This document shows positions 5,844 through 43,125 of a stretch of 64,000 bases of DNA, one piece after another; position 1 is the stretch's first letter; every line of letters begins with the position of its first letter. Both the position numbers and the translations under genes were made by a program. Below the pieces are notes generated by a model that did not search any database, was not told where the DNA came from, and saw only the letters and a program-made list of their open reading frames with translations. The DNA lies in IMG/VR virus record IMGVR_UViG_3300017700_000738, positions 6,466 to 70,465 of that record; one strand, given 5' to 3'. This DNA comes from a virus. Its lineage: Duplodnaviria; Caudoviricetes.

Positions 5844-5919
5844 TAAGGGTGGCTCGGTAAACGTCCGAGCGCGCCGCTGGGTCTTAACATTTGGTCACGC
5901 TGATCGATGAAAGAGACCC

Positions 5920-8883
5920 ATGGGCAAAGGCTCCAACACCACTTCCACATCCAGTTCCACCTCGGCTGATCCGCAGGCCATGCAGGTCTATCGTGACTTG
6001 CTCTCCCGCGCGCAAGGCGTGGCATCGACGCCCTATCAGGCGTATTCCGGCGATCTGACGGCCGGCATCAATTCGCAGCAGCAGGCAGGAATCGGCGGCA
6101 TCAACGCTAATGCCGGCTATGCGTCGCCCTACATTCAGCAGGCGGCCGGTCAGGCTACCTCGTCCTCGGCGCCGATCACCGGCGGCCAAATCCAGAACTA
6201 CATGAACCCGTACCAGCAGTCCGTCATCGACGCGACGCTGGCGCAGATGGGTCACGAGAATCAGACCGCGCAGGCGTCGCTGACCGGAAACCAGATCGCG
6301 CAGGGTGCGCTGGGCGGCAATGCGACGGGCGTGGCGCGCGGCATTCTGGCCGGTCAGCAGGGCCGCACCATGGCCTCGACGGTCGCCGGCCTCAATCAGC
6401 AGAACTACCAGCAGGCACTGTCGGCCGCGCAGGCCCAGCAGCAGACCGGCATCGCGGGCGCAAACGCTCTGGCGAATTACGGCGTGGCCGGGCAGTCGGC
6501 CGCTCTGCAGGGGGCCGGCGCGCAACTCTCGGCCGGTACGCTGCAGCAGCAGACCGAGCAGGCGAACCTCAACGCGCTTTATGGGCAGTATCAGCAGCAG
6601 CAGGCCTACCCGTATCAGCAGGCCCAGTGGCTGGCCGGCATCGGTACCGGCGTCGGCGGAGCGCTCGGCGGGACCTCGTCTGGCAGCACGACGGCGCCGC
6701 CGCCCAATCAGGCCGCGCAGTGGGCGGGCCTCGGGCTCTCGGCAGCCGGCATGTTCCTGTCGGATCGCCGCGCCAAGGAAGACATCGAGCATATCGGCGA
6801 GACGAACGACGGCCAGAAAATCTACCGGTACCGCTACAAGGGATCGCCGCAGCTGCACATCGGCCTGATGGCGCAGGATGTCGAGAAGGATCAGCCCGAG
6901 CACGTCCAGCACGGCGTGGACGGCATGCGCTATATTGATCTTGAGGGCGCGACTGACGATTCGGTGCGCCGCGCATCGGGCGGCGGCGTGGCCGGGACGC
7001 CATGGGCCGGCGGTGTGGGCTGGATTCCCGAGATGGCGATCCATGCATCGGCGCCGCGCACCGGAAGTGCCCCCAGCGCTCCGCGCGATCAGGGCGCCAG
7101 CTTCGACCCCACCAAGATGGCGCAGGGTATCGTCGGCGTCGGCAAGGGGTTGATGGACCGATTCGGATCGACGCCGGATTACGGCCAGACCTCCAACATG
7201 GATATCGGCGGCTATTCGATGCCGCAGTTCGGCAACTCGGTAGGCGTGGGCAATTACCAGATGCCGACCATCGGCTTCGCGCGCGGCGGGGTGGTGCGCA
7301 ATTGGGACGAGCCGGTCGGTATGTTCGGCGAGGGCGAGGAGCAGCTGGCGCCCAGCGCCTCGTTCGAGGACCGGATCGCGCCGGCACGTTTCGCCGTACA
7401 GGACGGCACCTTCGACCCGCAGGGCTCCAATTACACGCCACTGGCCGCGACCGAGCAGATGGAGGCCTCAAACCGTGGCGTTGTGCCGCTTCCGATGGGG
7501 CGTCCAGAGGGCGCCGGGGCGCCTGTGGTGGCCGATGACGATGACGACGAGGCGCCGGCTCCCGTGGGCGTCGCTGGCCGCTCCAAGGGCGTTGCTGCGC
7601 CCGTCATGGCGTTCGCGCCAGAGGGTGAGGGGTCGTATCGCGATCTCCCGGACGCCATCACGCGTCCGAAGTCGTCCGGCCTTGGGCTGGGTCTCATCTC
7701 GCCGAATGCGCAGACTGGCCTGATCGCCGCCGGGCTCGGCATGCTGTCGTCGCGTTCCCCGAATCTCGGCAACGCGGTCGGTGACGGCGGGATCGCAGGC
7801 TTCAGCGCGTACGGCTCGGCCGAGGAGCGTGATCGCAAAATCGAGGCCGAGGCGGCGAAGCTGCAGCGCGAAGCGGCCGAGAAGTCGCAGAAGTTCGGGT
7901 TGGATATCCGCAAGCAGACCGAGACCGAGCGTCACAACAAGGCGAGCGAGAAGGACACGGCGGCGAATCGCGCCCCGATGGGGATGCGCTTCAACGCCAA
8001 GGGCGAGCTGGAAGACATCCCGGGTTGGCTGCCGACGCTGGAGAAGGCCGCCAAGGCCCGCAAGGGACCGGAAGGCGAGTTGATGGACGATCAGACCGCC
8101 CAGTTCATGGCGGACCGGATCATCGCGGGCGACACCAAGGTGCTGACAGGCCTCGGTCGCGGTGCTCAGGGCGCGGCCAACATCATGAAGGTGCAGAAGC
8201 TGGTGGCCGAGCGCGCCGCCAGTGGCCAGCCCGTCAGCCCGGCCGCTCGTGAACTACTCACCAACGCCGCACAGTTCGAGGGTCTCAAGACCGCCGAGCG
8301 TACGCAGGCTGCCATCATGGCGAAGCTGTCGGTCTATGGTCGTACGGCGTTCAACGCGACGGACATCGCCGAGAACCTGTCCAAGGAAGTGCCGCGCACG
8401 CAGTGGCAGCCGGTCAACCGCGTCCTGCTGGCGGCTCGCACCAATACCGGCGATCCGAAGGTCGTGGCTCTCGGTCAGGCGCTGATGACCCTGACGAACG
8501 AATACGCGCGCGCAATCGGCGGCGGCCACGGCACCGTCCACGACAAGGAGGCTGCCGAGAAGCGTCTCTCGGCCGCGCAATCGCCCGAGCAGCTGTCGGC
8601 GGTCATCAATGTCATGCGTCAGGAAATCCTCGCCGAGGAGCGTGCCATGCCGGCGGCTCGTCAGCACATCCGGGACATCTACAACCCGGACCCGAACAAG
8701 CCGCGCGGCAGGTCCATCGCGGGTGAGCACGGTGCCGAGCCTCCTGCGGGACCGGTGGCCGGCGCCAGCGGGTTTAGGCCGCCTGCAGATGCCATCTCGC
8801 GCGTCTACAACGGCAAGACCTATTATTACAATCCCAAGGCGCTGGACGCCAAGGGCAACCCAACGCCGTACCCGGGTCAGTGA
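5920..8883 (+). CDS. DNA ejection/internal virion protein with internal peptidase S74-like domain
   Basis: 987 aa, Gln/Ala/Gly-rich N-terminus; SDRRAKEDI...YRYRYK...GLMAQDVE. Confidence 0.7.
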   Translation: MGKGSNTTSTSSSTSADPQAMQVYRDLLSRAQGVASTPYQAYSGDLTAGINSQQQAGIGGINANAGYASPYIQQAAGQATSSSAPITGGQIQNYMNPYQQSVIDATLAQMGHENQTAQASLTGNQIAQGALGGNATGVARGILAGQQGRTMASTVAGLNQQNYQQALSAAQAQQQTGIAGANALANYGVAGQSAALQGAGAQLSAGTLQQQTEQANLNALYGQYQQQQAYPYQQAQWLAGIGTGVGGALGGTSSGSTTAPPPNQAAQWAGLGLSAAGMFLSDRRAKEDIEHIGETNDGQKIYRYRYKGSPQLHIGLMAQDVEKDQPEHVQHGVDGMRYIDLEGATDDSVRRASGGGVAGTPWAGGVGWIPEMAIHASAPRTGSAPSAPRDQGASFDPTKMAQGIVGVGKGLMDRFGSTPDYGQTSNMDIGGYSMPQFGNSVGVGNYQMPTIGFARGGVVRNWDEPVGMFGEGEEQLAPSASFEDRIAPARFAVQDGTFDPQGSNYTPLAATEQMEASNRGVVPLPMGRPEGAGAPVVADDDDDEAPAPVGVAGRSKGVAAPVMAFAPEGEGSYRDLPDAITRPKSSGLGLGLISPNAQTGLIAAGLGMLSSRSPNLGNAVGDGGIAGFSAYGSAEERDRKIEAEAAKLQREAAEKSQKFGLDIRKQTETERHNKASEKDTAANRAPMGMRFNAKGELEDIPGWLPTLEKAAKARKGPEGELMDDQTAQFMADRIIAGDTKVLTGLGRGAQGAANIMKVQKLVAERAASGQPVSPAARELLTNAAQFEGLKTAERTQAAIMAKLSVYGRTAFNATDIAENLSKEVPRTQWQPVNRVLLAARTNTGDPKVVALGQALMTLTNEYARAIGGGHGTVHDKEAAEKRLSAAQSPEQLSAVINVMRQEILAEERAMPAARQHIRDIYNPDPNKPRGRSIAGEHGAEPPAGPVAGASGFRPPADAISRVYNGKTYYYNPKALDAKGNPTPYPGQ

Positions 8884-11800
8884 TGAATCTCGCCGCGCAC
8901 ATCCACGAGCAGGCCCGCTCCGTCAACGTGAAACCCACGGACGGTCAGAAGGAGGCGGGCAACTACAAGAAGGGGCATGTGCGCGTGCAGGGGCTCGATA
9001 TCACCATCGAGAACCCGCGCGGCTCGTACCGTTCCGGCAAGGACGCAAGCGGCAAGCCGTGGCGCTCGCAGCTTCCCCACCACTATGGCTACATCAAGCG
9101 CACGGTCGGCGCCGATGACGATCACGTTGATGTCTATCTCGGGCCGCACCTCAAGAGCCCGCACGTCTTCGCTGTCGATCAGCACGACCTGCATGGCGGG
9201 ACGTTCGACGAGCACAAGATTTTCATCGGCTTCGGCAGCAAGAAGCAGGCGCGCGACGCCTACATCAAAGCATTCTCGGATGGGCGCGGTGCGGATCGCA
9301 TCGGCCATATGGACACGCTGACCGTCGACCAGTTCAAGGCATGGCTGCGTAGCGGCAAGACCAAGAAGCCGATCCGGCATCGCGCGGCCGGTGGTTCGGT
9401 GTCGGAAGTGCCGTCGTTTGATCAGACCTCCGAGGTGCCGGCGTTCGATCAGACCGAAGATGCAGCCAAGCCGAAGTCATGGACGGACCGTATCTCCAAT
9501 GCTTGGGACAAGGCGACGCCGGGCGGACCTCTCTGGATGGCCAAGCAGGTCGCGCAGGGCGTACGCGGTGCCGTCGAGGGCTCGGTGGCCTCGACAGAGC
9601 CTGACGCCGTGACCGAGGAGGATATGCACCTTCAGAACCTGCGCCGCGATCAGGGACCGGAGCGCGCCATGCAGGCGGCCCAGTTCCTGACCCCGGGGGC
9701 GCCGGGCGGCGGCATGCTGGCGGTGCCGCGCGTGGCGCCGAAGTCGGTACCGGTCGCGCCGGAGGTGATGGCCAACAAGGAGATCGCTGGCGAGTTCGGC
9801 ATTCCGCTTTCCAAGGGGCAAGCCACGCAGGACCTCGACGCCATCCGATACGAGGACCTGTCGGCGCGCGGCGCGTACGGCAAGCCGGCGCAGGATCGTG
9901 CCGCGACGTTCTTCGACGATCAGTACGGCGCCACCCAGCAGGCCGGGCGCGACATTTCCGGCGGCATGGCGGGCCAGCGCGGCCCCGTGGAGAGCCCGGG
10001 ACAGGCGGCCGAGGTTGTGGCTGGTGATGTCGGCGAGCGCGCCACGCTGGCCCGCAGCCTCATGGAGGCGGCACGGCTCCGCGCCGAGGCCGAGGCGACG
10101 GCACAGCGCGGTATGGTGCAGGACAGCGGCCGGGTGGTCGACGATGTCGTGCGTCAGGGCAACCCCGCCGTAGAGAACCCTCTCGATGTCGCGGCCGGCG
10201 TGCGAAATTCTGTGCAGGAAGCCGCTGCCGCCAACCGGCAGGACTTCAAGAGCAAGTACGACGAGTTCGGGCGCCTACCGGGCGAGTTCGACGCCAGTGC
10301 GGTGCGCGGCATGGGCAATCGCATCAAGAACGATCTGTCGTTCCGTGACGAACCGGTGGTGATCGACGACCAGCTCACGCCGCTTGCGTCGCGGGCGATT
10401 CAGGAGATCGACAATATGTCGGCTCCTCGTATCCAGAACAGGGCGGACCCGCGTGCTGCCCCTGATCCAGAGGAAATCACCTCGGTGTCCCTCAAGGGCG
10501 TCGACCAGATGCGAAAGAAGCTGGTCGCCTACTATCAGGGGGCACGCAACGCTGGACCGAATGGCGAGTCCGACCGGCGCGCGATGCAGGCCGTTATGGA
10601 GGCCTTCGACAACAATATCGAAAGGTCGATCACGGAAGACCTATTCTCCGGTGATCCGCGAGCGCTTCAGGCGCTGCAGGAGGCCCGTGCGTCGTATTCC
10701 CGGTACCGAAATACGTTCGGTCCGCAGCGGAAGGGCGATGACGTCGGTGATGCGATGCGTCGTATCGTCGAGCAGAATCGTACCCCGGAAGAAGTCGCGA
10801 ACTACATTATCGGTAGCGGCAAGCTGGGGAGTTCCGGTCTCCCGGTTCGTATCGCGGACCGCCTGCAGGAGGTGCTTCCTCCCGAGCAGTTCAACGCCGT
10901 GCGGCAGGCGATCTGGCAGCGGGCATCGCAGGTTCGCGGTCAGGATGGCGGCATTGATCCGATCAAGTCGGCGCGCAGCACTCTCGACTTCTTGGGCACT
11001 ACGTTGGCGCAGCGCCACTTCAACGCACAAGAGCGTGCGGCTATGCGCGAGCATGCGCAGGGCGTGATGGCGCTGGAGCGCGCTATCGAGACGCACCCGG
11101 CCACGCAGGCCTATCAGGCGGCCCAGCGCATCTTCAATGGCGCGTTCGGCGGCGAGGGCATCGGCGGCGCGCAGCAGGCGGTGTTCCGGCGCATCATCGA
11201 CGGTACCGCGCTCCCCGAGGAGGCGGCCGGCGCGATCTTCAACGCCATCGGCAGCGGCAATCCCGGCAACGTGTCGCGCATGATCGGCGCTATCGAGCGC
11301 ATCACCGGCAACAAGAGCGAGACCATGGCGGCAATCCGTCAGGGCGTGTGGCAGAAGGTGACGCAGAACGCTGATGGTCGTTCGCAGCCCGGCATGCAGA
11401 AGATCGTCAACAACATCAGCGACCTCCTGAACGGCAAGGGCGCCAGCATCGCGAAGGCGCTCTACACCGAGGAGCAGCGCCAGATGATGGAGCGGTACGC
11501 GCATGCGCTGCGGCTGACGATCATCCCGAAATATGCGCGGACGAACTCGGATACGGCGCCGGCCATGATGGGTGCGTTGCGCAAGTACGGTTCGGCTATT
11601 CTCGGCAGCATCGGCGCGATCTTCACCGGCGGCGCCGAGGGCGGCCTCGCAGGTGTTGGCGTCAAGCATCTGCTGGAGAAGGGCGGAACGAAGTTCACCG
11701 AGTCGCGTGCGGCGTCTAAGGTCGGAAAGTCACTCGATAACCTCGAAGATGCGCCGCGTCCGTTACTGCCGCCAAAGAAGCCCCTGCCGGCGTACCTCAT

Positions 11801-15001: not shown

Positions 15002-15346
15002 GCCTATCCCACATTCTGGAGCTACACTCGTGCAATCCATACGGTCATATCGCAGACACGCCGGCCAGCCGCTATTTCAGCGCTGCTGGACGATTGCGTC
15101 TGTCGTCATGACAGCACCAGAAGCGAATAGCCCCAAGGGGCGCAAAGACTAAACCGGCAGCGAGCCTCCGCTCTCTGCCACCCCGGCAGAGAAAACCTCG
15201 CACACCTTCCCACTCGACGTGCACCCTCTGCCAGAAGACCCGACGACCGTCACCGCGTACGCGCGTTCCGGCGTCTAGGACCGAGCTGTAGGAGTGGCGC
15301 CATCGCGCGCTGCAAACTGGTTTCGGCGGTCCGAACTGTTCTTCGT

Positions 15347-15419
15347 GCTGGCTTAGGTCAGTGGGAGACCGCCGTCCTTGTAAGACGGATGTCGGGGGTT
15401 CGATTCCGCCCAGCCAGCA
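15347..15419 (+). tRNA. trnT: tRNA-Thr(UGU), no encoded CCA
   Basis: GCTGGCT/AGCCAGC acceptor; CCGTC-CTTGTAA-GACGG. Confidence 0.85.
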
Positions 15420-15432
15420 CAAAGCACAGATT

Positions 15433-15506
15433 GCCCTTGAAGCATTGAGGTGATGCACCGCTCTCGTAAAGCGGAGAGCCGGTTTCGATTCCCGGCATGG
15501 GCGCCA
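15433..15506 (+). tRNA. trnT: tRNA-Thr(CGU), imperfect T-stem
   Basis: CCGCT-CTCGTAA-AGCGG; ends GCCA. Confidence 0.75.
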
Positions 15507-15507
15507 A

Positions 15508-15588
15508 GTAGGGGGAAACATGGGTTCGAATCCCATCTGGAGCCACCGGTGCACCGGTCCAGTCGTCTAGTGGTTGGGACGCTCCCGC
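15508..15588 (+). ncRNA. Circularly permuted tRNA-like RNA 1 (YrlA-like core, no anticodon loop)
   Basis: Order T-arm (ATGGG-TTCGAAT-CCCAT), acceptor strands joined by linker, D-arm (GTCT-AGTGGTTG-GGAC); ends pair GGGGG/CTCCC. Confidence 0.7.
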
Positions 15589-15595
15589 AATTCAC

Positions 15596-15669
15596 GCTGC
15601 ATTCGTCCAGTGGTAGGGCACTGCTTTGGTAAGGCAGGAACCGGAGTTCGATCCTCCGATGTAGCACCA
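15596..15669 (+). tRNA. trnT: tRNA-Thr(GGU)
   Basis: CTGCT-TTGGTAA-GGCAG; ACCA end. Confidence 0.9.
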
Positions 15670-15670
15670 T

Positions 15671-15746
15671 GCGTGACTAGCCCAACGGTAGAGGCAGCGG
15701 TTTCAGAAGCCGTCCAGTCGGGGTTCGAATCTCCGGTCACGCACCA
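15671..15746 (+). tRNA. trnL: tRNA-Leu(CAG), short variable loop
   Basis: GCGGT-TTCAGAA-GCCGT; 5-nt variable loop. Confidence 0.85.
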
Positions 15747-15751
15747 TTCAC

Positions 15752-15828
15752 GCCCGTGTAGCCAAACGGTAAAGGCCGCTCGTTCAAAGCGAGTTCATCT
15801 GCGGGTTCGAATCCTGCCACGGGCACCA
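15752..15828 (+). tRNA. trnL: tRNA-Leu(CAA), short variable loop
   Basis: GCTCG-TTCAAAG-CGAGT. Confidence 0.85.
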
Positions 15829-15834
15829 CTTCAT

Positions 15835-15909
15835 GATCCGCGAGCCAGATGGGACGGCACCGGGCCTACACCCCGGCAAGACTGCGTTCGATTCGTAGGC
15901 GGGTTACCA
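15835..15909 (+). tRNA. trnV: tRNA-Val(UAC)
   Basis: CCGGG-CCTACAC-CCCGG. Confidence 0.85.
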
Positions 15910-15913
15910 TCAT

Positions 15914-15987
15914 GGTCCTATAGCTCAAAGGTAGAGCACGCGGCTGATAACCGCGCGACGTCGGATCGTTACCGGCTAGGACTACCA
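15914..15987 (+). tRNA. trnI: tRNA-Ile(GAU)
   Basis: CGCGG-CTGATAA-CCGCG; T-loop ATCGTTA. Confidence 0.9.
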
Positions 15988-16016
15988 ATTCACCGGCCTA
16001 ACTTAGGGAGCCGAAA

Positions 16017-16142
16017 ATGAAGTGCATTCACTGCCAGTTCGGGCTCGACCCGGTTCGGCTGAAGCGCCAGTGGGTCCACCACTTCCGCGACACCGGTCAG
16101 ATCGTCGTGTGCGAAGACAAGAACCTGAAACCGGCGTCCTAA
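16017..16142 (+). CDS. Small Cys/His protein inside the tRNA array
   Basis: AGGGAG SD; MKCIHCQFGLDPVRLKRQWVHHFRDTGQIVVCEDKNLKPAS*; below ORF-track size cut-off. Confidence 0.65.
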   Translation: MKCIHCQFGLDPVRLKRQWVHHFRDTGQIVVCEDKNLKPAS

Positions 16143-16144
16143 TT

Positions 16145-16219
16145 GGACCCGGAGTAGGAAAGTAGCACGCTGGCCTTTTAACCCATGCGAACTCGGGGCA
16201 GTACCGAGCGGGTTCACCA
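16145..16219 (+). tRNA. trnK: tRNA-Lys(UUU), divergent
   Basis: GGACCCG/CGGGTTC acceptor; loop CTTTTAA; T-loop GGCAGTA. Confidence 0.7.
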
Positions 16220-16224
16220 ATCAT

Positions 16225-16298
16225 CGACCGCAAGCATTAAGGTGATGCACGGGCCTCTTAACCCCGGGAACACGGATCGTTACCGTGGCGGTTGACCA
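16225..16298 (+). tRNA. trnK: tRNA-Lys(CUU)
   Basis: CGGGC-CTCTTAA-CCCCG. Confidence 0.85.
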
Positions 16299-16303
16299 AT
16301 CAT

Positions 16304-16379
16304 GTGTTCGTACCCCAACGGCAGAGGGACGGCGTTGAGAACGCCCTCAGTGGGAGTTCAAATCTCCCCGGACACACCA
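16304..16379 (+). tRNA. trnL: tRNA-Leu(GAG), short variable loop
   Basis: GGCG-TTGAGAA-CGCC. Confidence 0.85.
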
Positions 16380-16380
16380 T

Positions 16381-16454
16381 GCTGCTATAGCTCAAAGGCA
16401 GAGCGCCCGGTTGTCAACCGGAGGACCGGGGATCGATACCCCGTAGCAGCGCCA
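16381..16454 (+). tRNA. trnD: tRNA-Asp(GUC)
   Basis: CCGG-TTGTCAA-CCGG; G73. Confidence 0.9.
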
Positions 16455-16460
16455 TTTCAT

Positions 16461-16534
16461 CTGGGTGAAAGATTACGGTAGTCGGTGGGCTTTGGAAGCT
16501 CGCAGCGCGTGTTCGACTCACGCCACCCAGACCA
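16461..16534 (+). tRNA. trnP: tRNA-Pro(UGG)
   Basis: C1:G72, A73; TGGGC-TTTGGAA-GCTCG. Confidence 0.85.
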
Positions 16535-16686
16535 TTTCGAGAGCCGGTGGGGTCTCGCAAGAGCTTGGAGATGGGCGGTTCGATTCCCCCTCGCGCGGTG
16601 TAAAAGCCAAGCGGTCGTCTAACGGCTAGGATACCAAGATGCACACCGGACTAGAACGAGGCGTCATGACCCACGCCTACTCGAAA
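16535..16686 (+). ncRNA. Circularly permuted tRNA-like RNA 2 with extended closing helices (YrlA/Y-RNA-like)
   Basis: TTTCGAG/CTCGAAA, CCGGTG/CACCGG and CTTGG/CCAAG enclose T-arm, looped acceptor stem and D-arm. Confidence 0.7.
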
Positions 16687-16692
16687 CACTTA

Positions 16693-16768
16693 GCGCGTTG
16701 AGCCAGATGGGACGGCCCGCCGCTCATAACGGTAAGAGGACGGGGTTCGATCCCCCGAGCGCGCACCA
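16693..16768 (+). tRNA. tRNA-Met or Ile2 (CAU)
   Basis: GCCG-CTCATAA-CGGT; GCGCGTT/AGCGCGC. Confidence 0.85.
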
Positions 16769-17115
16769 TGAAGATCATCGCGAAGTATCTGCCGATGAAG
16801 GAGCCGCAGACGCCGTTGCTGCAGCTTTACATCCACGACGCGCCGCATCGGCGCATGCACATCAAGGTGATCCAGCAATACCGGGTCTTCCTGCATACGG
16901 CGATAGCGAAGGTCGGCGTCGCGCTGCCGATACAGCATGAAATCGATCTGGATGTCCTGTTCGTCAATCCGTCCACTCCCGACCTTGGCAATGCCTATCT
17001 GGCATTGGAGCAGGCGCTGGACGACAAGACGTTGACCAAGCCGGGCATCGTGCTCGACGACAGTCTTATCCAGAAGGTCACCATGTCGAAGTTCTTCCCG
17101 AACCCGAAAAAGTAA
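16768..17115 (+). CDS. RusA-like protein inside the tRNA array
   Basis: 115 aa; PDLGNAYLALEQALDD...GIVLDDSLI resembles RusA PDxDN...DD. Confidence 0.6.
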   Translation: MKIIAKYLPMKEPQTPLLQLYIHDAPHRRMHIKVIQQYRVFLHTAIAKVGVALPIQHEIDLDVLFVNPSTPDLGNAYLALEQALDDKTLTKPGIVLDDSLIQKVTMSKFFPNPKK

Positions 17116-17116
17116 C

Positions 17117-17192
17117 GGTCCCCGAGCCGGATGGACAAGGCACCGCCCTCCGAAGGCGGAGATACGGCGTTCGAATCGCCGGGGGATCACCA
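17117..17192 (+). tRNA. trnR: tRNA-Arg(CCG)
   Basis: CCGCC-CTCCGAA-GGCGG. Confidence 0.9.
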
Positions 17193-17196
17193 ATAC

Positions 17197-17287
17197 GGAG
17201 GAGAGAAGCGGTCGGGGTACCGTCGCGGTCTCGAAAACCGAGGGTGGGCGCAAGTCCATGGAGTTCGAATCTACCCCTCCTCCGCCA
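17197..17287 (+). tRNA. trnS: tRNA-Ser(CGA), long variable arm
   Basis: CGGT-CTCGAAA-ACCG; G73. Confidence 0.85.
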
Positions 17288-17289
17288 CC

Positions 17290-17318
17290 TTGGCAGCCGG
17301 CTCCCGGTTTGCTATATG
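17290..17318 (+). promoter_or_regulatory. Possible internal promoter in the tRNA array
   Basis: TTGGCA-N17-TATATG preceded by GC (alphaproteobacterial-type -10). Confidence 0.35.
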
Positions 17319-17457
17319 CACGAATGTCGCGTCGGGGCTACGCTTTAGCCAAGCCTATGGTCCGGTGCAGGCTGGCTTCCTGTCGGCGCGGCGCTCACTT
17401 CTCTATCGATCACGGATGTACTGACGATACGCGCACGAGTTCAAGCGGCGCACCAAT

Positions 17458-17534
17458 TGCGGGATGGAGCAGTGGTCAGCTCGGCAGTCTCATAAACTGC
17501 AGGTCGTCGGTTCGAATCCGGCTCTCCGCAACCA
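17458..17534 (+). tRNA. Initiator-like tRNA-Met(CAU), atypical
   Basis: fMet-like D-arm GAGC-AGTGGTCA-GCTC (A11:U24); GCAGT-CTCATAA-ACTGC. Confidence 0.8.
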
Positions 17535-17610
17535 TGTCACCGAAAAGTCGCCGCCCTTTAAGGCGTGTGGCCTGCGAACGGGCTCGCGAGATCGAGAGAT
17601 AGGGGCACCA
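17535..17610 (+). pseudogene. Degenerate type II tRNA-like element
   Basis: CGCC-CTTTAA-GGCG, GCCTG-CGAA-CGGGC variable arm, ends GCACCA; D- and T-arms do not fold. Confidence 0.45.
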
Positions 17611-17617
17611 TTTTTTT

Positions 17618-17703
17618 CCCTCAGTATCCCGCTAAGGACGCGGAGCCGACTGTAAATCGGAGGCCTGCGGGCTGGCGAGGATCGTTACCTCGATGGGGGA
17701 CCA
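17618..17703 (+). tRNA. trnY: tRNA-Tyr(GUA)
   Basis: CCGA-CTGTAAA-TCGG, variable arm, A73. Confidence 0.8.
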
Positions 17704-17704
17704 T

Positions 17705-17778
17705 GCGGACATAGGTTAATGGTAGACTTGGAGTGTGCCACACTTCGTGCGGGAGTTCGATTCTCCCTGTCCGCGCCA
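17705..17778 (+). tRNA. trnG: tRNA-Gly(GCC), G73
   Basis: GGAGT-GTGCCAC-ACTTC; GCGGACA/TGTCCGC. Confidence 0.8.
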
Positions 17779-17796
17779 ATTAAGAGGTTTGATCGC

Positions 17797-17943
17797 ATGA
17801 GATGCTTTTATGGCCCCGGAAACGATGATGATCGTACTTGCGGTCCTTGCGAGGCATGCGGCCGAGAGGCCGTCTTGGATCAATCCTATTCCGGTAAGAA
17901 TCGCGGGAAATTTGTCTGCGATGAATGCCGTGACGCCCAGTAA
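17797..17943 (+). CDS. Small zinc-finger-like protein
   Basis: AAGAGGT SD; MRCFYGPGNDDDRTCGPCEACGREAVLDQSYSGKNRGKFVCDECRDAQ (two CxxC). Confidence 0.7.
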   Translation: MRCFYGPGNDDDRTCGPCEACGREAVLDQSYSGKNRGKFVCDECRDAQ

Positions 17944-18010
17944 GCTAATCTATTGAAAGCGCCGAGCTGAAGCCTCGGAGAGCGTGGGGAGGAACCACGA
18001 CTGGGCACCA
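17935..18010 (+). tRNA. trnF: tRNA-Phe(GAA), divergent loops
   Basis: GCCCAGT/ACTGGGC; CCGAG-CTGAAGC-CTCGG; CGTGG-GGAGGAA-CCACG. Confidence 0.75.
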
Positions 18011-18081
18011 TTTTCGGAGGTTCTATGGAAAAGGGGACCTTCAGCGATCACCGGTGCTATTGCTGCGCACCGGAGCCAATT

Positions 18082-18153
18082 GGGGAGCGCGCCGGGGCGC
18101 TGCCGAACCTTGCAAGTTTGGCCGGGAGGGATCAACACCCTCGCTCTCCACCA
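18082..18153 (+). tRNA. trnA: tRNA-Ala(UGC), reduced D-arm
   Basis: G3:U70; GCCGAAC-CTTGCAA-GTTTGGC. Confidence 0.75.
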
Positions 18154-18155
18154 AG

Positions 18156-18234
18156 TTCGGTCAAGCCAAGCAAGGTGCAAGGACCCGCCTGTTAAGCGGT
18201 GATTAGCCCGGTTCGATTCCGGGGACCGGAGCCA
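18156..18234 (+). tRNA. trnN: tRNA-Asn(GUU)
   Basis: CCGC-CTGTTAA-GCGG; U1, G73. Confidence 0.9.
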
Positions 18235-18238
18235 ATAT

Positions 18239-18313
18239 GCTGTCGTCGTCTACTGGCTAGGATGCTGGGTTCTCAACCCGGTGAAGCGGGATCGAAACCC
18301 GCCGACAGCGCCA
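18239..18313 (+). tRNA. trnE: tRNA-Glu(CUC)
   Basis: CTGGG-TTCTCAA-CCCGG. Confidence 0.9.
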
Positions 18314-18314
18314 T

Positions 18315-18396
18315 GCACGCGTATCCCCCCTGATTACGAATCAGGACAAAGGTAACCGGAAGGCAGATGCGGGTTCGAATCCTGCCGCGTGCTCCA
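18315..18396 (+). tRNA. trnR: tRNA-Arg(ACG) with non-canonical topology
   Basis: Perfect acceptor, CCTGA-TTACGAA-TCAGG and T-arm; only 7 nt between acceptor and anticodon arm. Confidence 0.7.
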
Positions 18397-18401
18397 ATCA
18401 T

Positions 18402-18479
18402 CTGCGTGTAGCTCAGTCTGGTCAGAGTACGTCGTTCGGAACGACGGGGTCGCAGGATCGAAGCCTGCCACGCAGACCA
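18402..18479 (+). tRNA. trnP: tRNA-Pro(CGG)
   Basis: CGTCG-TTCGGAA-CGACG; C1:G72. Confidence 0.9.
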
Positions 18480-18483
18480 TTAC

Positions 18484-18557
18484 GCCCGCTTCGTATAACG
18501 GCAGTACACCGCTCTCTGAAAGCGGTAGCGTTGGATCGACACCAGCAGCGGGTGCCA
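18484..18557 (+). tRNA. trnQ: tRNA-Gln(CUG)
   Basis: CCGCT-CTCTGAA-AGCGG. Confidence 0.9.
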
Positions 18558-18562
18558 TTTAC

Positions 18563-18636
18563 CACGGTGTGGCCGAGTGACTAGGCAGCGGATTGCAACC
18601 CCGCGTAGGCCAGTTAAAATCTGGCCACCGTGTCCA
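18563..18636 (+). tRNA. trnC: tRNA-Cys(GCA)
   Basis: Loop TTGCAAC; U73. Confidence 0.85.
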
Positions 18637-18637
18637 T

Positions 18638-18714
18638 GCTTCCGTAGCTCAGTGGACAGAGCGCCGGTCTTCTACACCGGGTCGTCGGGTGTTCGAATCA
18701 TCCCGGAAGCGCCA
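18638..18714 (+). tRNA. trnR: tRNA-Arg(UCU)
   Basis: CCGGT-CTTCTAC-ACCGG. Confidence 0.9.
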
Positions 18715-18717
18715 TTT

Positions 18718-18794
18718 CTCGCCGTAGCTCAACTGGACAGAGCCACCGCCTCCTAAGCGGTTGCGTGGGCGTTCGAGTCGTCCCGGTGAGGCCA
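18718..18794 (+). tRNA. trnR: tRNA-Arg(CCU)
   Basis: ACCGC-CTCCTAA-GCGGT. Confidence 0.9.
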
Positions 18795-18799
18795 ACCAT

Positions 18800-18887
18800 G
18801 GAAGGTCAACCAGCAAGGCGCTGGCGGCCCCTGCTAAGGGCATGGCGCCGGCAACGGCGTGGTGATCGTGTCTCCGGCCTTCCGCCA
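18800..18887 (+). tRNA. trnS: tRNA-Ser(GCU), long variable arm
   Basis: GCCC-CTGCTAA-GGGC; GCGCCG-GCAA-CGGCGT. Confidence 0.85.
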
Positions 18888-18891
18888 TTTC

Positions 18892-18965
18892 GCGTGCTTA
18901 GTTTAGAGGTAAAATTCTGCGCTTCCAACGCAGCGTCCCGGGTTCGATTCCCGGAGCCCGCGCCA
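18892..18965 (+). tRNA. trnG: tRNA-Gly(UCC), G73
   Basis: CTGCG-CTTCCAA-CGCAG. Confidence 0.85.
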
Positions 18966-18966
18966 T

Positions 18967-19041
18967 CCTGTGTTCGTCTACTGGCTAGGATCACGCTCTT
19001 TCACAGCGTAGAAGCGGGATCGATACCCGCACACAGGGCCA
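18967..19041 (+). tRNA. trnE: tRNA-Glu(UUC)
   Basis: ACGCT-CTTTCAC-AGCGT. Confidence 0.9.
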
Positions 19042-19046
19042 ATTGA

Positions 19047-19117
19047 TGCGGCACCTCCGGTGAGGGGTGGGGCCTTTGAAGCCCTGCAGCTCGGTTCGAC
19101 ACCGAGTGCCGCTGCCA
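19047..19117 (+). tRNA. trnQ: tRNA-Gln(UUG)
   Basis: GGGGC-CTTTGAA-GCCCT; 1-72 mismatch. Confidence 0.8.
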
Positions 19118-19137
19118 GCATCTCCGCTGGTACGCGA

Positions 19138-19208
19138 CCCGATGCCTCCGGCGAGGACACCGCTCTCATAAGGCGGTCAGGGTGCGTCGGCAGCACCCTT
19201 CGGGACCA
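19138..19208 (+). tRNA. tRNA-Met or Ile2 (CAU), divergent T-loop
   Basis: CCGCT-CTCATAA-GGCGG; T-loop GTCGGCA. Confidence 0.75.
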
Positions 19209-19213
19209 TTCAT

Positions 19214-19289
19214 GCCAACTAGGCCGATCAGGTGATGGCGCGGGTTTGTGGAGCCCGAGAGGCTGGATCGATACCAGCAGTTGGTACCA
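19214..19289 (+). tRNA. trnH: tRNA-His(GUG), A73, no G-1
   Basis: CGGGT-TTGTGGA-GCCCG. Confidence 0.9.
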
Positions 19290-19293
19290 ATAT

Positions 19294-19368
19294 GCGAGCG
19301 AGGTGTTACGGCAGCATCCCGGTCTCCAAAACCGTGGGGAGCAAGTTCAATTCTTGCCGCTCGTGCCA
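19294..19368 (+). tRNA. trnW: tRNA-Trp(CCA)
   Basis: CGGT-CTCCAAA-ACCG; G73. Confidence 0.9.
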
Positions 19369-41002: not shown

Positions 41003-42373
41003 TCACCAAAATGACTCCGTCCTCAAATCACGCACAAAGGTTGACAGGTCCACGCCATGACCAACCGTAGTCTTCAGAATGATATCGGTCTCCGGATCGT
41101 CGAGGCACAACGCGAAGTCGCGTTTGTCGATCAGCGGCGTGACCCGGCCATACTTCAACAGGGCTTTCGCGCGCAGCGTTTCGAGGTCGTAGCCCCGACC
41201 GGCACGGCTGATCTCGTCCAGCAGACCGTTGGCGGCTTCGATGTAACCGTTCGTGAAGCGGTGATCGAAGAAGTTGAAGATGAACTTCCGCCAGCGTTTC
41301 GTCCGCATGAAGGACAGGATCGGCTTGAAGTGCCGTTCCATCTCCGGCGGGACCAGCTCCAGCCAGGCGTCGAAAGCCTTCTCGGCCTCCGCACGGGTCT
41401 GGCATTCGTACAGGTCGTAGAACCATTCCTTGAGGGTGACAGCCTGCTCGATGGCAGGATGTTGCTTGAACAGGCGGTTCAGCTCCCATTTGCCGCTGTC
41501 GTTCAGCCGGTCTGGCCGAGCCTGCAGCAACGGAATCTTGTGCTTCATGGCAACCCGGTCCTCGTTGGTCATCTTGGACTGGAGAGCCTTCCGGACGGAC
41601 ATCACCGCCCAATCGGCGTATCGGGTGACGTGGAAGCGATCTACCACGATGGTAGCGCGCGGGAAGCACTCTTCGTTCAGCGTCTTATAGCCCCAGAACA
41701 TATCCTGGGTGACGACCTCGACGTGCTGTCGGCCAGACATGGCCTTGAAGTAAGGGATCAGGTCCGATTGCTTCCGGGACAGCAGGATGTCCAACAGGCA
41801 GCGCTGCTCAACGTCGCCAATGACAAAGCGCGCCGTGCCGCCCAGCACCTTCTCATCCATGCCGAGAACGCGTGGAAGTTCAAAGGTGTAATTGGACAGC
41901 CGCTCCTTGGCGTACTCCTTGAACACGCGCCGGACCATCGTTTCGTTGATGCCGTTGATGTTCGCCGCCGCGACGAACTTCATTTCGATGCCGTCTTTCT
42001 CGATCTGACGGCGGAAGCGGACGGTCATCACACGGTCGGCGTCGAGGCAGTCCAATTCCTGCAGCAGCACCGAGCTGCAAGCCCGGCATCGATAGCGTTG
42101 GCGCTTGATCCGGATGAACGTTTTCTGTCGCTGGAGCGGCAAGTCTCGGAAGTCGACGGTTCGTTTACCGTGTTTCACGACATCGGGCGCATCGCACCTG
42201 CAGGTCGGCGCTTCCGGATCGGTGAGATTGGCGTGGACGTAGACGACACCGTCTTCCTCCTCAATCCCTTCGGACCAAAGGCCCTCCAGCCGCAGCAAAT
42301 CCAGCTCGGTGATCACGCGCAGTTCCCCAACCCCAAACGCCGAGAACGTGCACCGACCCCGGTTAACGGTCAA
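41003..42373 (-). mobile_element. ISL3-family transposase (probable start GTG 42316)
   Basis: CRC...KRTVDFRDLP...RYRCRAC zinc finger; LGMDEK, VTQDM, VDRFHV, TNGYIEAANG, GRGYDLETLRAK. Confidence 0.9.
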
Positions 42374-42387
42374 TTGCGGGTGGCGGC

Positions 42388-43125
42388 ATGAACGTCTTGG
42401 ACCTGTTTAGCGGCATCGGCGGGTTCAGTCTCGGGCTTGAAAGAGCTGGAATGCGGACGGCGGCATTCTGCGAGATCGACCCGTTCAGACGGCGCGTCCT
42501 CGCCAAGCATTGGCCGGACGTGCCGTGCTTCGAGGACATCCAACATCTGTCTTCTCAACACCTTACACAGCGAGGAATTGCCGTTGACGTCATTGCCGGA
42601 GGATTTCCATGCCAAGACGTCAGCGTCTCAGGGAAACGAGCAGGAATTGAAGGCGCAAGGAGCGGTCTATGGCGGGAATACGCCCGTCTTATTGGCGAGC
42701 TTCGACCACGATACGTCATCGTGGAGAACGCAGCCGCCCTCAAAGCCAAAGGACACGGTTTCGGACGAGTTCTCGGAGACCTGGCCGCGCTCGGGTACGA
42801 TGCGTGGTGGGATTGCATACCAGCATCCGCCGTTGGTGCCGCTCACCCGCGCGATCGTATCTGGATTGTTGCCTACCCCTCAGAAGCACGACCAGATCAA
42901 GGGCTATCAGCACCGGGTCAACCGCTACGGTACGAAGCATGGCGGTCGGAATTTGAACGATACCGTTGCGAGCCTCGAAGGTTTGGACGGCTATCTGAAT
43001 CCGGAATTCCTCGAATTGCTGATGAACTATCCAAGGACGTGGACCGAGTTGCGGCCCTTGGAGACAGCGTCTTCGTGAAGATCCCGGAAGCGATAGGCAG
43101 GGCAATCATGGGGTCCGCGCCATGA
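42388..43125 (+). CDS. dcm: C5-cytosine DNA methyltransferase, alpha subunit
   Basis: LDLFSGIGG, AGGFPCQDVS, ENAAAL, WIVAY, RVAALGDSV; motif IX absent. Confidence 0.9.
   Translation: MNVLDLFSGIGGFSLGLERAGMRTAAFCEIDPFRRRVLAKHWPDVPCFEDIQHLSSQHLTQRGIAVDVIAGGFPCQDVSVSGKRAGIEGARSGLWREYARLIGELRPRYVIVENAAALKAKGHGFGRVLGDLAALGYDAWWDCIPASAVGAAHPRDRIWIVAYPSEARPDQGLSAPGQPLRYEAWRSEFERYRCEPRRFGRLSESGIPRIADELSKDVDRVAALGDSVFVKIPEAIGRAIMGSAP
42584..43078 (+). CDS. Nested out-of-frame C5-methyltransferase beta subunit (motif IX)
   Basis: GAGGA SD then TTG; FSETWPRSGTM, GLLPTP, YLNPEFLELLMNYPRTWTEL. Confidence 0.75.
   Translation: MTSLPEDFHAKTSASQGNEQELKAQGAVYGGNTPVLLASFDHDTSSWRTQPPSKPKDTVSDEFSETWPRSGTMRGGIAYQHPPLVPLTRAIVSGLLPTPQKHDQIKGYQHRVNRYGTKHGGRNLNDTVASLEGLDGYLNPEFLELLMNYPRTWTELRPLETASS

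Follow-up and report, generated by a model that had tools for sequence, protein, structure and literature searches.

A permuted tRNA core inside a phage tRNA array

We analysed 64,000 nucleotides (nt) of the tailed-phage record IMGVR_UViG_3300017700_000738 (hereafter the window). The record is an IMG/VR entry of 70,465 base pairs (bp) judged complete; the window covers its bases 6466-70465 and has a GC content of about 61%. ARAGORN called 28 tRNA genes in the window, all on the + strand and located from 15347 to 19368, most of them separated by spacers of only 1-8 nt. An 89-nt gap separates tRNA-Thr(CGU) from tRNA-Thr(GGU), and we found that it is occupied by an element at 15511-15586 (+) consisting of a tRNA core with four helices, which follow one another as closing stem, T-arm, loop-capped acceptor stem and D-arm. 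A first-pass annotation had listed the parts of such a core at 15508-15588, and each of them was recovered at its coordinates. The features of the locus are as follows; loci in other genomes are referred to by L numbers.

15433-15506, +: tRNA-Thr(CGU), upstream neighbour, CCA encoded (ARAGORN; Rfam tRNA 45.8 bits); its 3' end lies 4 nt ahead of the element
15507-15510, +: leader AGTA, 4 nt, read from the sequence; AGTA in L003, CTCA in L005, AGCA in L015
15511-15515, +: closing stem 5' strand GGGGG, pairing with 15582-15586; equivalent to tRNA anticodon-stem positions 39-43
15516-15519, +: variable loop AAAC, 4 nt, with A46 and C48 and residue 47 absent; NRRC across the family
15520-15536, +: T-arm ATGGG-TTCGAAT-CCCAT with a canonical T-loop, from sequence and fold; the stem covaries
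15537-15544, +: acceptor 3' strand CTGGA(G)CC, one G bulged, pairing with 15556-15562
15545-15555, +: acceptor-sealing loop ACCGGTGCACC, starting A-C-C; a small ACCGG/CCGGT hairpin is possible
15556-15562, +: acceptor 5' strand GGTCCAG, pairing with the acceptor 3' strand
15563-15564, +: TC (U8-C9), from the sequence
15565-15580, +: D-arm GTCT-AGTGGTTG-GGAC, from sequence and fold; Glu-type augmented D-helix
15581, +: G26, from the sequence
15582-15586, +: closing stem 3' strand CTCCC; equivalent to anticodon-stem positions 27-31
15587-15595, +: trailer GCAATTCAC, 9 nt, reaching to the RNase P site of the tRNA that follows; ortholog trailers are 7-9 nt
15596-15669, +: tRNA-Thr(GGU), downstream neighbour (ARAGORN); the element lies directly 5' of it in the window and in L003, L005, L015 and L017

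The nucleotides 3' of CTCCC start with GC in the window, L003, L005 and L015, and the remaining flanks are unconserved. The A-C-C with which the acceptor loop begins is likely a relic of N73-CCA. The first-pass annotation had described this loop as a palindromic linker; the palindrome is present in the window but is specific to this phage, as the loops of the orthologs differ. The strand is fixed as + by G·U pairs, namely a G·T in the closing stem, U13·G22 and the acceptor wobbles of L005. No promoter-like site and no + strand terminator-like site adjoin the element, and the sole nearby + strand terminator-like site, at 15322, precedes the tRNA array.

The fold retains a complete tRNA body of the Glu type

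The unconstrained minimum-free-energy fold of the element was the same four-way junction. The nucleotides that make tertiary contacts in tRNA are all intact: the T-loop is UUCGAAU, the D-loop carries A14, G15 and GG, and U8 is kept. With C48 as the last residue of the 4-nt variable loop, the G15:C48 Levitt pair can form. The D-helix consists of U11-A24, C12-G23 and U13·G22, together with A46 and no residue 47. U11-A24, U13·G22, A46 and the lack of a residue 47 are the body part of the E. coli glutamate identity set, which are determinants for GluRS (PMC9976931). Within the array, the nearest D-arms were those of tRNA-Glu(CUC), tRNA-Thr(GGU) and tRNA-Glu(UUC).

When the two halves were un-permuted and joined by an artificial 7-nt loop, ARAGORN called a tRNA for the window, L005, L015 and L017, the 'Glu' label on these constructs stemming from the artificial loop and thus not being evidence of identity. 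In native order, none of these four was called. The element lacks the uninterrupted cloverleaf, the 7-nt anticodon loop and the free acceptor end of a canonical tRNA, and both ARAGORN and the Rfam tRNA model (RF00005) were silent on it. The earlier reading of the element as an elbow or body mimic with permuted T-acceptor-D order and no anticodon loop is supported by sequence, by fold and by the covariation described below.

The element is conserved and its helices covary

Six related phage arrays were retrieved through a small open reading frame (ORF) inside the array, at 16768-17115. L003 and L005 were found through these related arrays, and L015, L017, L018, L009 and L010 were added by pattern scans. 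L003, L005, L015 and L017 are orthologs in the same slot, each directly 5' of tRNA-Thr(GGU), and the L018 copy sits in the slot of a second, larger mimic of the window (mimic 2, see below) rather than in that of the element. Further copies were identified in unrelated phages: L009 (37% GC, no tRNA genes), L010 (a 239-kb phage) and L138 (Tunturiibacter phage Tunturi_5). The first-pass annotation had named two intact adjacent tRNAs in relatives as the sign of a chance deletion remnant; the relatives carry the same permuted element instead.

The stems differ in sequence among these copies and still pair. The T stems included ATGGG/CCCAT, GGCAG/CTGCC, GGTGG/CCACC, ACGGG/CCCGT and AGCGG/CCGCT, and the acceptor stems CTGGA(G)CC/GGTCCAG, TCGTGGA/TCTACGG, ACGGGCC/GGCCTGT and ACTGGCC/GGCCGGT. 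A 7-bp acceptor stem is retained in the window, L005, L015, L017 and L138. Acceptor loops range from 3 to 24 nt, with CTA in L138, GTCA in L015, GCCA in L017, GTAA in L018, CTGATCA in L005 and a 24-nt loop ending in TCCA in L003. The boundaries of the core are identical among all minimal copies. A contiguous extension of the closing stem into the flanks was found in none of the window, L003, L005 and L015; the closing stem of L009 is lengthened by 17 contiguous base pairs, and the terminal stem of L010 has 5+10 bp, the 10 pairs lying beyond a 2x2 internal loop.

In a nine-sequence alignment fitted to the model, 98.4% of cells were paired and 17 of the 21 pairs showed changes on both sides; none of 500 shuffles equalled this result, and slid partners were only 33-56% paired. 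All 7 acceptor pairs vary on both sides within the family, and closing-stem pairs 1-4 covary in outliers. RNAalifold, run on an independent MAFFT alignment of seven sequences, returned the same four helices with compensatory changes in 13 of 20 pairs. The D-helix, G26 and the closing stem (GGGRG/CTCCC in 8 family members) are near-invariant, and the T and acceptor stems are free to vary. On this comparative evidence, the structure is conserved under selection, beyond chance.

A covariance model built from three copies gave 70.7 bits to L015, which was outside the model. Over about 1 Mb of phage DNA, a second covariance model, R2, gave 16 matches of at least 43 bits, all outside called tRNAs, and tandem-tRNA junctions reached at most 41 bits. 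Megablast of the whole array against cultured phages returned nothing, and a sensitive blastn search of the element against them returned only a 24-nt match, which led to Tunturi_5 (PP885688.1, 308,711 bp). This phage carries an unannotated member at about 250148-250214 (55.7 bits), in which AAAC-ATGGG-TTCGAAT-CCCAT is identical to the element and the 7-bp acceptor stem is closed by CTA. RtcB is encoded in Tunturi_5 about 5 kb from this member.

Several other RNA-like structures were observed in the course of these scans. Just 5' of the Tunturi_5 mimic, at L138:1430-1500 (PP885688.1, about 250080-250150), the unannotated DNA of the gp304-gp305 interval holds a second T-arm-like hairpin, GACCGG-TTCGATT-CCGGC, as well as a GCGGATGGTG/CATCACCGC hairpin. 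Further stand-alone permuted modules scored 43-67 bits with R2 at L006:7667-7734, L093:9221-9319 and 9470-9537, L076:1623-1691, L079:6682-6752, L025:1467-1543 and L070:5376-5489; their closing stems and D-arms differ from those of the element. Downstream of two of these modules lies another conserved string, AGTCGAGAGTCRTAGGGTCCGG, which may mark a different type of scaffold. At about 640-720 of L012 (the same as L011; - strand), a phage array of 36 tRNAs begins with a tRNA look-alike in normal order on which ARAGORN was silent. It has the D-arm, CTCCC/GGGGG stem and AAAC loop of the element, with a 6-nt GTTAAG in place of the anticodon loop, and looks like an un-permuted counterpart of the mimic. 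Matches of the pattern GGGAGCG-N30-60-GAWTYGAA... in L013 and L016 were dismissed as false positives, as they have no T-stem.

A larger paralog carries the same core on a scaffold

The window contains a second permuted core, about 1 kb downstream in the same array:

16535-16686, +: mimic 2, paralog of the element, a scaffold RNA of about 150 nt with a permuted tRNA core (16564-16638) on a three-way-junction scaffold

The core of mimic 2 is diverged, with covariance-model scores of 32.9 and 52.9 bits. Counterparts of the scaffold were found at L017:830-978 and L018:2955-3120 (- strand). The scaffold comprises an outer helix P1 (GACGAG/CTCGTC, CCGACG/CGTCGG, TTTCGAG/CTCGAAA), a helix P2 (CCGTAA/TTACGG, CCGGTG/CACCGG), a GCA(A)-loop hairpin, a 3' hairpin AGGCGT/ACGCCT and a junction string AAGAACGAGGCGTC...ACGCCTAC. 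The scaffold family has the same permuted core as the element, and L017 and L018 share GGGAG/CTCCC, AAAC and the Glu-type D-arm with it; P1, P2, both hairpins and the junction string are all missing from the element. The junction motif GAACGAGGCGTC-N4-10-ACGCCTAC is present 3' of the cores in mimic 2, L017 and L018, and was absent from the 130 nt downstream of 15586. Since L017 fills the slot of the element 5' of tRNA-Thr(GGU) and mimic 2 bears the scaffold, we consider the element a scaffold-less paralog.

The junction string was found in 91 viral and 27 bacterial contigs, several of the bacterial matches being chance occurrences within coding sequence. No Rfam family at gathering threshold covered the junction motif at 15 bacterial loci, a search of the window's array at E<=10 gave nothing over 16535-16686, and sensitive blastn of mimic 2 against cultured phages gave nothing. 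Thirteen of the 16 strong R2 matches lack the exact junction string, indicating that permuted modules often occur without a scaffold. No universal partner near the scaffold motif emerged when 2,491 neighbouring ORFs were clustered all against all: the most widespread cluster, HNH endonuclease, was present at just 10 of the 121 loci, followed by RtcB (8 viral loci plus L120) and large terminase (6). In L120, a Solirubrobacterales metagenome-assembled genome, an RtcB gene at 5851-7173 precedes a tRNA-like T-arm and a scaffold RNA that carries the same 3' junction string, at 7480-7640, an arrangement reminiscent of the rsr-yrlBA-rtcBA operon.

The contents of the slot bear on whether the element is evolutionary debris, that is, a foldable and functionless remnant of a decaying tandem tRNA duplication or of a scaffold RNA that has lost its scaffold. 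The same slot holds the full scaffold in L017 and the core alone in the window, it is variable enough to hold other things in L002, L004 and L006, the acceptor loops resemble relics of NCCA plus spacer, and the D-arm of L003 has been replaced. Against this reading, the four minimal orthologs have diverged at most stem positions with nearly all pairs kept by compensation, the tertiary-interaction nucleotides are all intact and the core boundaries are the same in every minimal copy, and the core recurs in unrelated phages of widely differing GC content. We consider debris rather unlikely. One of the other occupants of the slot, at L004:4512-4640 and again 5' of tRNA-Thr(GGU), is an RNA with a terminal inverted repeat of about 23 bp, GAGCATCCGCCAGCAACATCC / GGATGTTGCTGGCGAATGCTC, around a T-arm; next comes a gene resembling tRNA-Thr(CGU), which escaped ARAGORN.

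Relation to YrlA and other permuted or tRNA-like RNAs

The closest known system is YrlA (Rfam RF02553), a tRNA-like Y RNA bound by bacterial and mycobacteriophage Ro60/Rsr (PMC4201824; 10.1101/312249). YrlA is defined by a 5' GNCGAAN0-1G motif, a tRNA-like domain with T-arm, acceptor stem and D-arm (T-AS-D), and a position within 4 kb of Ro60 on the same strand, the motif near the 5' end being the putative Ro60 contact (PMC4201824). Its tRNA-like domain is modified by TruB and DusA, and RNase P cuts the form with a 7-bp stem, which also receives CCA (PMC4201824; 10.1101/312249); a tRNA dimer junction has been proposed as its origin (10.1101/312249).

The element resembles YrlA in the order of T-arm, loop-closed acceptor-like stem and D-arm, in a chain that opens at the anticodon-stem equivalent, in the retention of tRNA tertiary nucleotides and in a probable tRNA dimer-junction origin; in some YrlA members the acceptor stem is likewise 7 bp long and can be opened by RNase P. 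It differs in its D-arm, which is of the Glu type GTCT..GGAC in contrast to the YrlA consensus GCUC..GAGC, in being wedged between tRNAs with 4- and 9-nt spacers, and in having only 5 bp where YrlA has a long terminal stem, although L009 and L010 do have long stems.

These similarities raise the question of whether the element is a true Y RNA, binding a host Ro60/Rsr through unrecognised sequences and tethering an effector as YrlA does. The Rfam YrlA model aligned its positions 30-81, the T-AS-D part, to 15519-15580, in agreement with the topology. Moreover, the 5' strand of the scaffold relatives, GACGAGAG, is one mismatch from GNCGAANG, and the 3' junction motif of the scaffold lies near RtcB in 9 loci. 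However, the score on the element was 12.6 bits against a gathering threshold of 69, and the model gave no match on the L005 ortholog at E<=10 or on L009 at E<=1. Its strongest matches in the array were a tRNA-tRNA junction (21.9 bits) and, second, a stretch across a tRNA-like gene that was not called and tRNA-Pro (21.2 bits; 18366-18428, overlapping the gene at 18314-18401). The GNCGAAN0-1G motif was absent from 15490-15520, where the 5' flank consists of the 3' end of tRNA-Thr(CGU) plus AGTA, and the element has no stem longer than 5 bp at its termini. TROVE/Ro60 (PF05731) was absent from all six phage records examined, namely the 70,465-bp record and five related or other carrier records, with positive controls. 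Because only the T-AS-D domain is shared, and the score, the motif, the terminal stem and Ro60 proximity are all lacking, we rejected membership in YrlA, so that the likeness noted by the first-pass annotation does not extend to membership of the family; a Y RNA function of the element is, in our view, quite improbable.

The first-pass annotation had also raised a permuted tRNA that needs ligation. Permuted tRNA genes of the Cyanidioschyzon merolae type, as summarised in 10.1101/312249 from Soma et al. 2007, have anticodon-loop residues and a bulge-helix-bulge at their termini, and their transcripts are ligated and opened into working tRNAs. As in these algal and archaeal genes, the 3' half of the element comes first, an intervening sequence joins the acceptor ends and the ends pair as an anticodon stem, the halves being complementary in both stems. 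A genuine permuted gene, whose ends would be joined into an anticodon loop and whose acceptor loop would be opened, is also compatible with the GCCA loop of L017, where an RNase P cut would give a mature N73-CCA. The termini argue against it: the element has no loop residues such as U33 and no splice motif, CTCCC is followed by GC in the four minimal copies with unconserved flanks beyond, and in other members the ends enter scaffold helices (L017, L018) or long terminal stems (L009, L010). No RtcB was found in this phage, as had been noted before for the window alone and now extends to the whole 70-kb phage, nor in L003, L005, L015 or L009. Furthermore, no bacterial splicing endonuclease is known (10.1101/312249), and the phage already has two ordinary tRNA-Glu genes, Glu(CUC) and Glu(UUC), called by ARAGORN. 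A permuted tRNA gene is thus highly improbable, and the ligation proposal is not supported.

Other comparisons were less close. The eukaryotic mascRNA (RF01684) is likewise a tRNA-shaped non-decoding RNA, cut from MALAT1 by RNase P and RNase Z, and is reported to act by binding GlnRS without being charged (PMC9976931). It differs from the element in its normal order and free CCA end, and its Rfam match on the element was at chance level (13.9 bits). Apart from the tRNAs, nothing scored above threshold in Rfam, and the weak matches (Plastid-ycf2, Twister-sister, mascRNA and tmRNA) are chance or T-arm matches. A two-piece permuted tmRNA of alpha-proteobacteria and cyanobacteria was reportedly described by Keiler, Shapiro and Williams in 2000, and as in that gene the T-arm and acceptor 3' strand precede the acceptor 5' strand. 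Features of tmRNA are a tag reading frame, pseudoknots and an acceptor of the alanine type, and it lacks a D-stem. We rejected a tmRNA, as ARAGORN reported none and the Rfam tmRNA model matched the T-arm only (10.4 bits). An attP integration site was rejected as well, since the phage has no tyrosine integrase and the tRNA 3' half is followed by the complementary 5' half. Well-studied anticodon nucleases mainly read the anticodon stem-loop, which the element lacks, and we therefore hold a decoy for such nucleases to be unlikely.

Proposed production and role of the RNA

Taken together, we consider it probable that the element is a functional, non-decoding tRNA-body mimic RNA. It would specify a small non-coding RNA about 80 nt long, a complete, circularly permuted Glu-type tRNA body in which the chain starts and ends in the anticodon-stem equivalent, a loop seals the acceptor end and no anticodon loop exists. 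Transcription, processing, L-shape, partner and role are what we infer from this arrangement. The RNA would be co-transcribed within the phage tRNA operon and released by the RNase P cut at the 5' end of tRNA-Thr(GGU), 9 nt downstream, and by 3' maturation of tRNA-Thr(CGU), 4 nt upstream. It would fold into the tRNA L-shape, for which the required nucleotides (UUCGAAU, D-loop GG, U8, G15:C48) are present, and by analogy with YrlA it is probably modified like a tRNA. The 7-bp acceptor stem and the loops that resemble relics of N73-CCA (GCCA, GTCA, ACC...) suggest a tRNA dimer-junction origin and possible opening by RNase P. The cut would fall 5' of G15556, by analogy with M. smegmatis YrlA, for which cleavage of the form with a 7-bp stem was shown (PMC4201824); the 3-4 nt acceptor loops of some copies indicate that such opening is not universal. 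As to its origin, the element is a stripped-down paralog of the scaffold-borne family (16535-16686), with a head-to-tail tRNA dimer junction as the probable source.

An alternative reading is a cis-acting processing element, in which the fold only draws RNase P and tRNA-maturation enzymes, for example as an entry for 3' trimming of tRNA-Thr(CGU), and the excised piece has no role. The spacing of 4 nt past one tRNA and 9 nt ahead of the next fits this proposal, as do the 7-bp acceptor stem plus 5-bp T stem, which have the geometry of an RNase P minihelix, the precedent of M. smegmatis YrlA as a substrate (PMC4201824) and the observation that, on its downstream side, the upstream tRNA has no other RNase P site. 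Most tRNAs of the array, however, manage without a helper at spacings of 1-8 nt, and an RNase P minihelix needs neither a complete D-arm nor the Levitt pair nor a conserved sequence in the closing stem. A copy is also present in the L009 phage, which has no tRNAs, L017 and L018 have theirs on autonomous scaffolds, and the 3-4 nt acceptor loops of L138 and L015 look poor as RNase P leaders. We consider this explanation unlikely.

Factors that recognise the elbow, the 12-bp acceptor/T-arm helix and the Glu-type D-helix would take a functional mimic for a tRNA. The mimic would be unusable by the ribosome and not cleavable in an anticodon loop. We propose that it may act as a decoy or adaptor for a host tRNA-binding factor in tRNA damage, repair or quality control, and would thus be the functional equivalent of the effector-binding (tRNA-like) half of YrlA, minus the Ro60-binding half. 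The near-invariance of the D-helix and closing stem beside variable T and acceptor stems points to a sequence-specific reader.

Several observations weigh against a functional mimic. The fold energy equals that of shuffled sequence (z about 0), so that the case rests on sequence comparison and not on stability. With just 5 bp in the closing stem and no helix beside it, the stability of the free RNA is uncertain. The nine-sequence covariation alignment was fitted to the model, for which the MAFFT/RNAalifold run serves as the unbiased check. Related arrays L002, L004, L006 and L007 have no element in the slot, which shows that it is dispensable for the phage group. In L003 the D-arm has been swapped from the Glu type to a GCTC/GAGC type, so that the Glu-likeness may reflect ancestry and not function. 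Finally, no RNA-repair or tRNA-binding protein was identified among the about 50 phage ORFs scanned against Pfam or PHROGs, and no candidate partner protein is encoded beside the element.

A more specific form of the functional mimic is speculative, and we give it only a small chance of being correct. The RNA would be opened by RNase P into a two-piece, CCA-ended tRNA-Glu body, independent of Ro60 and immune to anticodon nucleases, which would titrate or trigger a host reader of the tRNA-Glu body. Candidate readers would be GluRS itself, a kinase or toxin that targets the complex of GluRS with tRNA, or a sensor that detects broken tRNAs, and the RNA would serve as a phage weapon in tRNA conflict by means of its conserved Glu-type D-helix. 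The loop of L017 is exactly GCCA, so that a single RNase P cut would leave a mature N73-CCA end.

Other features of the phage

Matches of the scanned ORFs to Pfam or PHROGs indicate a podovirus-like phage, with tail fibres, an endolysin, Erf, an exonuclease, DnaB, a large terminase, an SU10-type portal, an ISL3 transposase and a C5 methylase. The ORF used to retrieve the related arrays (16768-17115, +, 115 aa) lies in the middle of the tRNA array directly after tRNA-Met and is kept in all six, at 50-83% protein identity: 73-83% in four of them and 50% in L007, the most distant. Pfam, PHROG and PDB sequence searches gave no match for it, and a PDB sequence search with a 473-aa ORF returned nothing.

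The tRNA-like gene at 18314-18401, which neither ARAGORN nor the Rfam tRNA model called, has the acceptor GCACGCG/CGCGTGC and the loop TTACGAA (anticodon ACG) and is without a normal D-arm. At its position in L005, between Glu(CUC) and Pro(CGG), there is a regular tRNA-Arg(ACG).

An ISL3-family transposase at 41003-42373 (-; DDE_Tnp_ISL3, E 5e-51) adjoins a C5 cytosine methylase ORF at 42388-43125 (+). Of the 324 positions in its Pfam profile, the methylase ORF matches only 1-165, the first half, which suggests that the ISL3 insertion may have interrupted this gene.

Discussion

The permuted topology and the idea of tRNA mimicry are already published for YrlA. The present element differs in being a minimal, Ro60-independent and scaffold-less form with a Glu-type body, placed inside a tRNA array. 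It is the smallest YrlA-type permuted tRNA mimic so far, with no Ro60 handle, Ro60 gene or scaffold, and thereby presents on its own the tRNA-like 'effector' domain, the half of bacterial Y RNAs that is least understood. A family member occurs in a cultured phage-host pair, Tunturi_5 on Tunturiibacter psychrotolerans X4BP1, in which the question of the partner can be tested by pull-down and genetics. Phage tRNA arrays are usually read as a codon supply or as back-up sets against nucleases. A conserved non-decoding member of such an array with a perfect tRNA body would mean that phages also deploy the tRNA shape alone.

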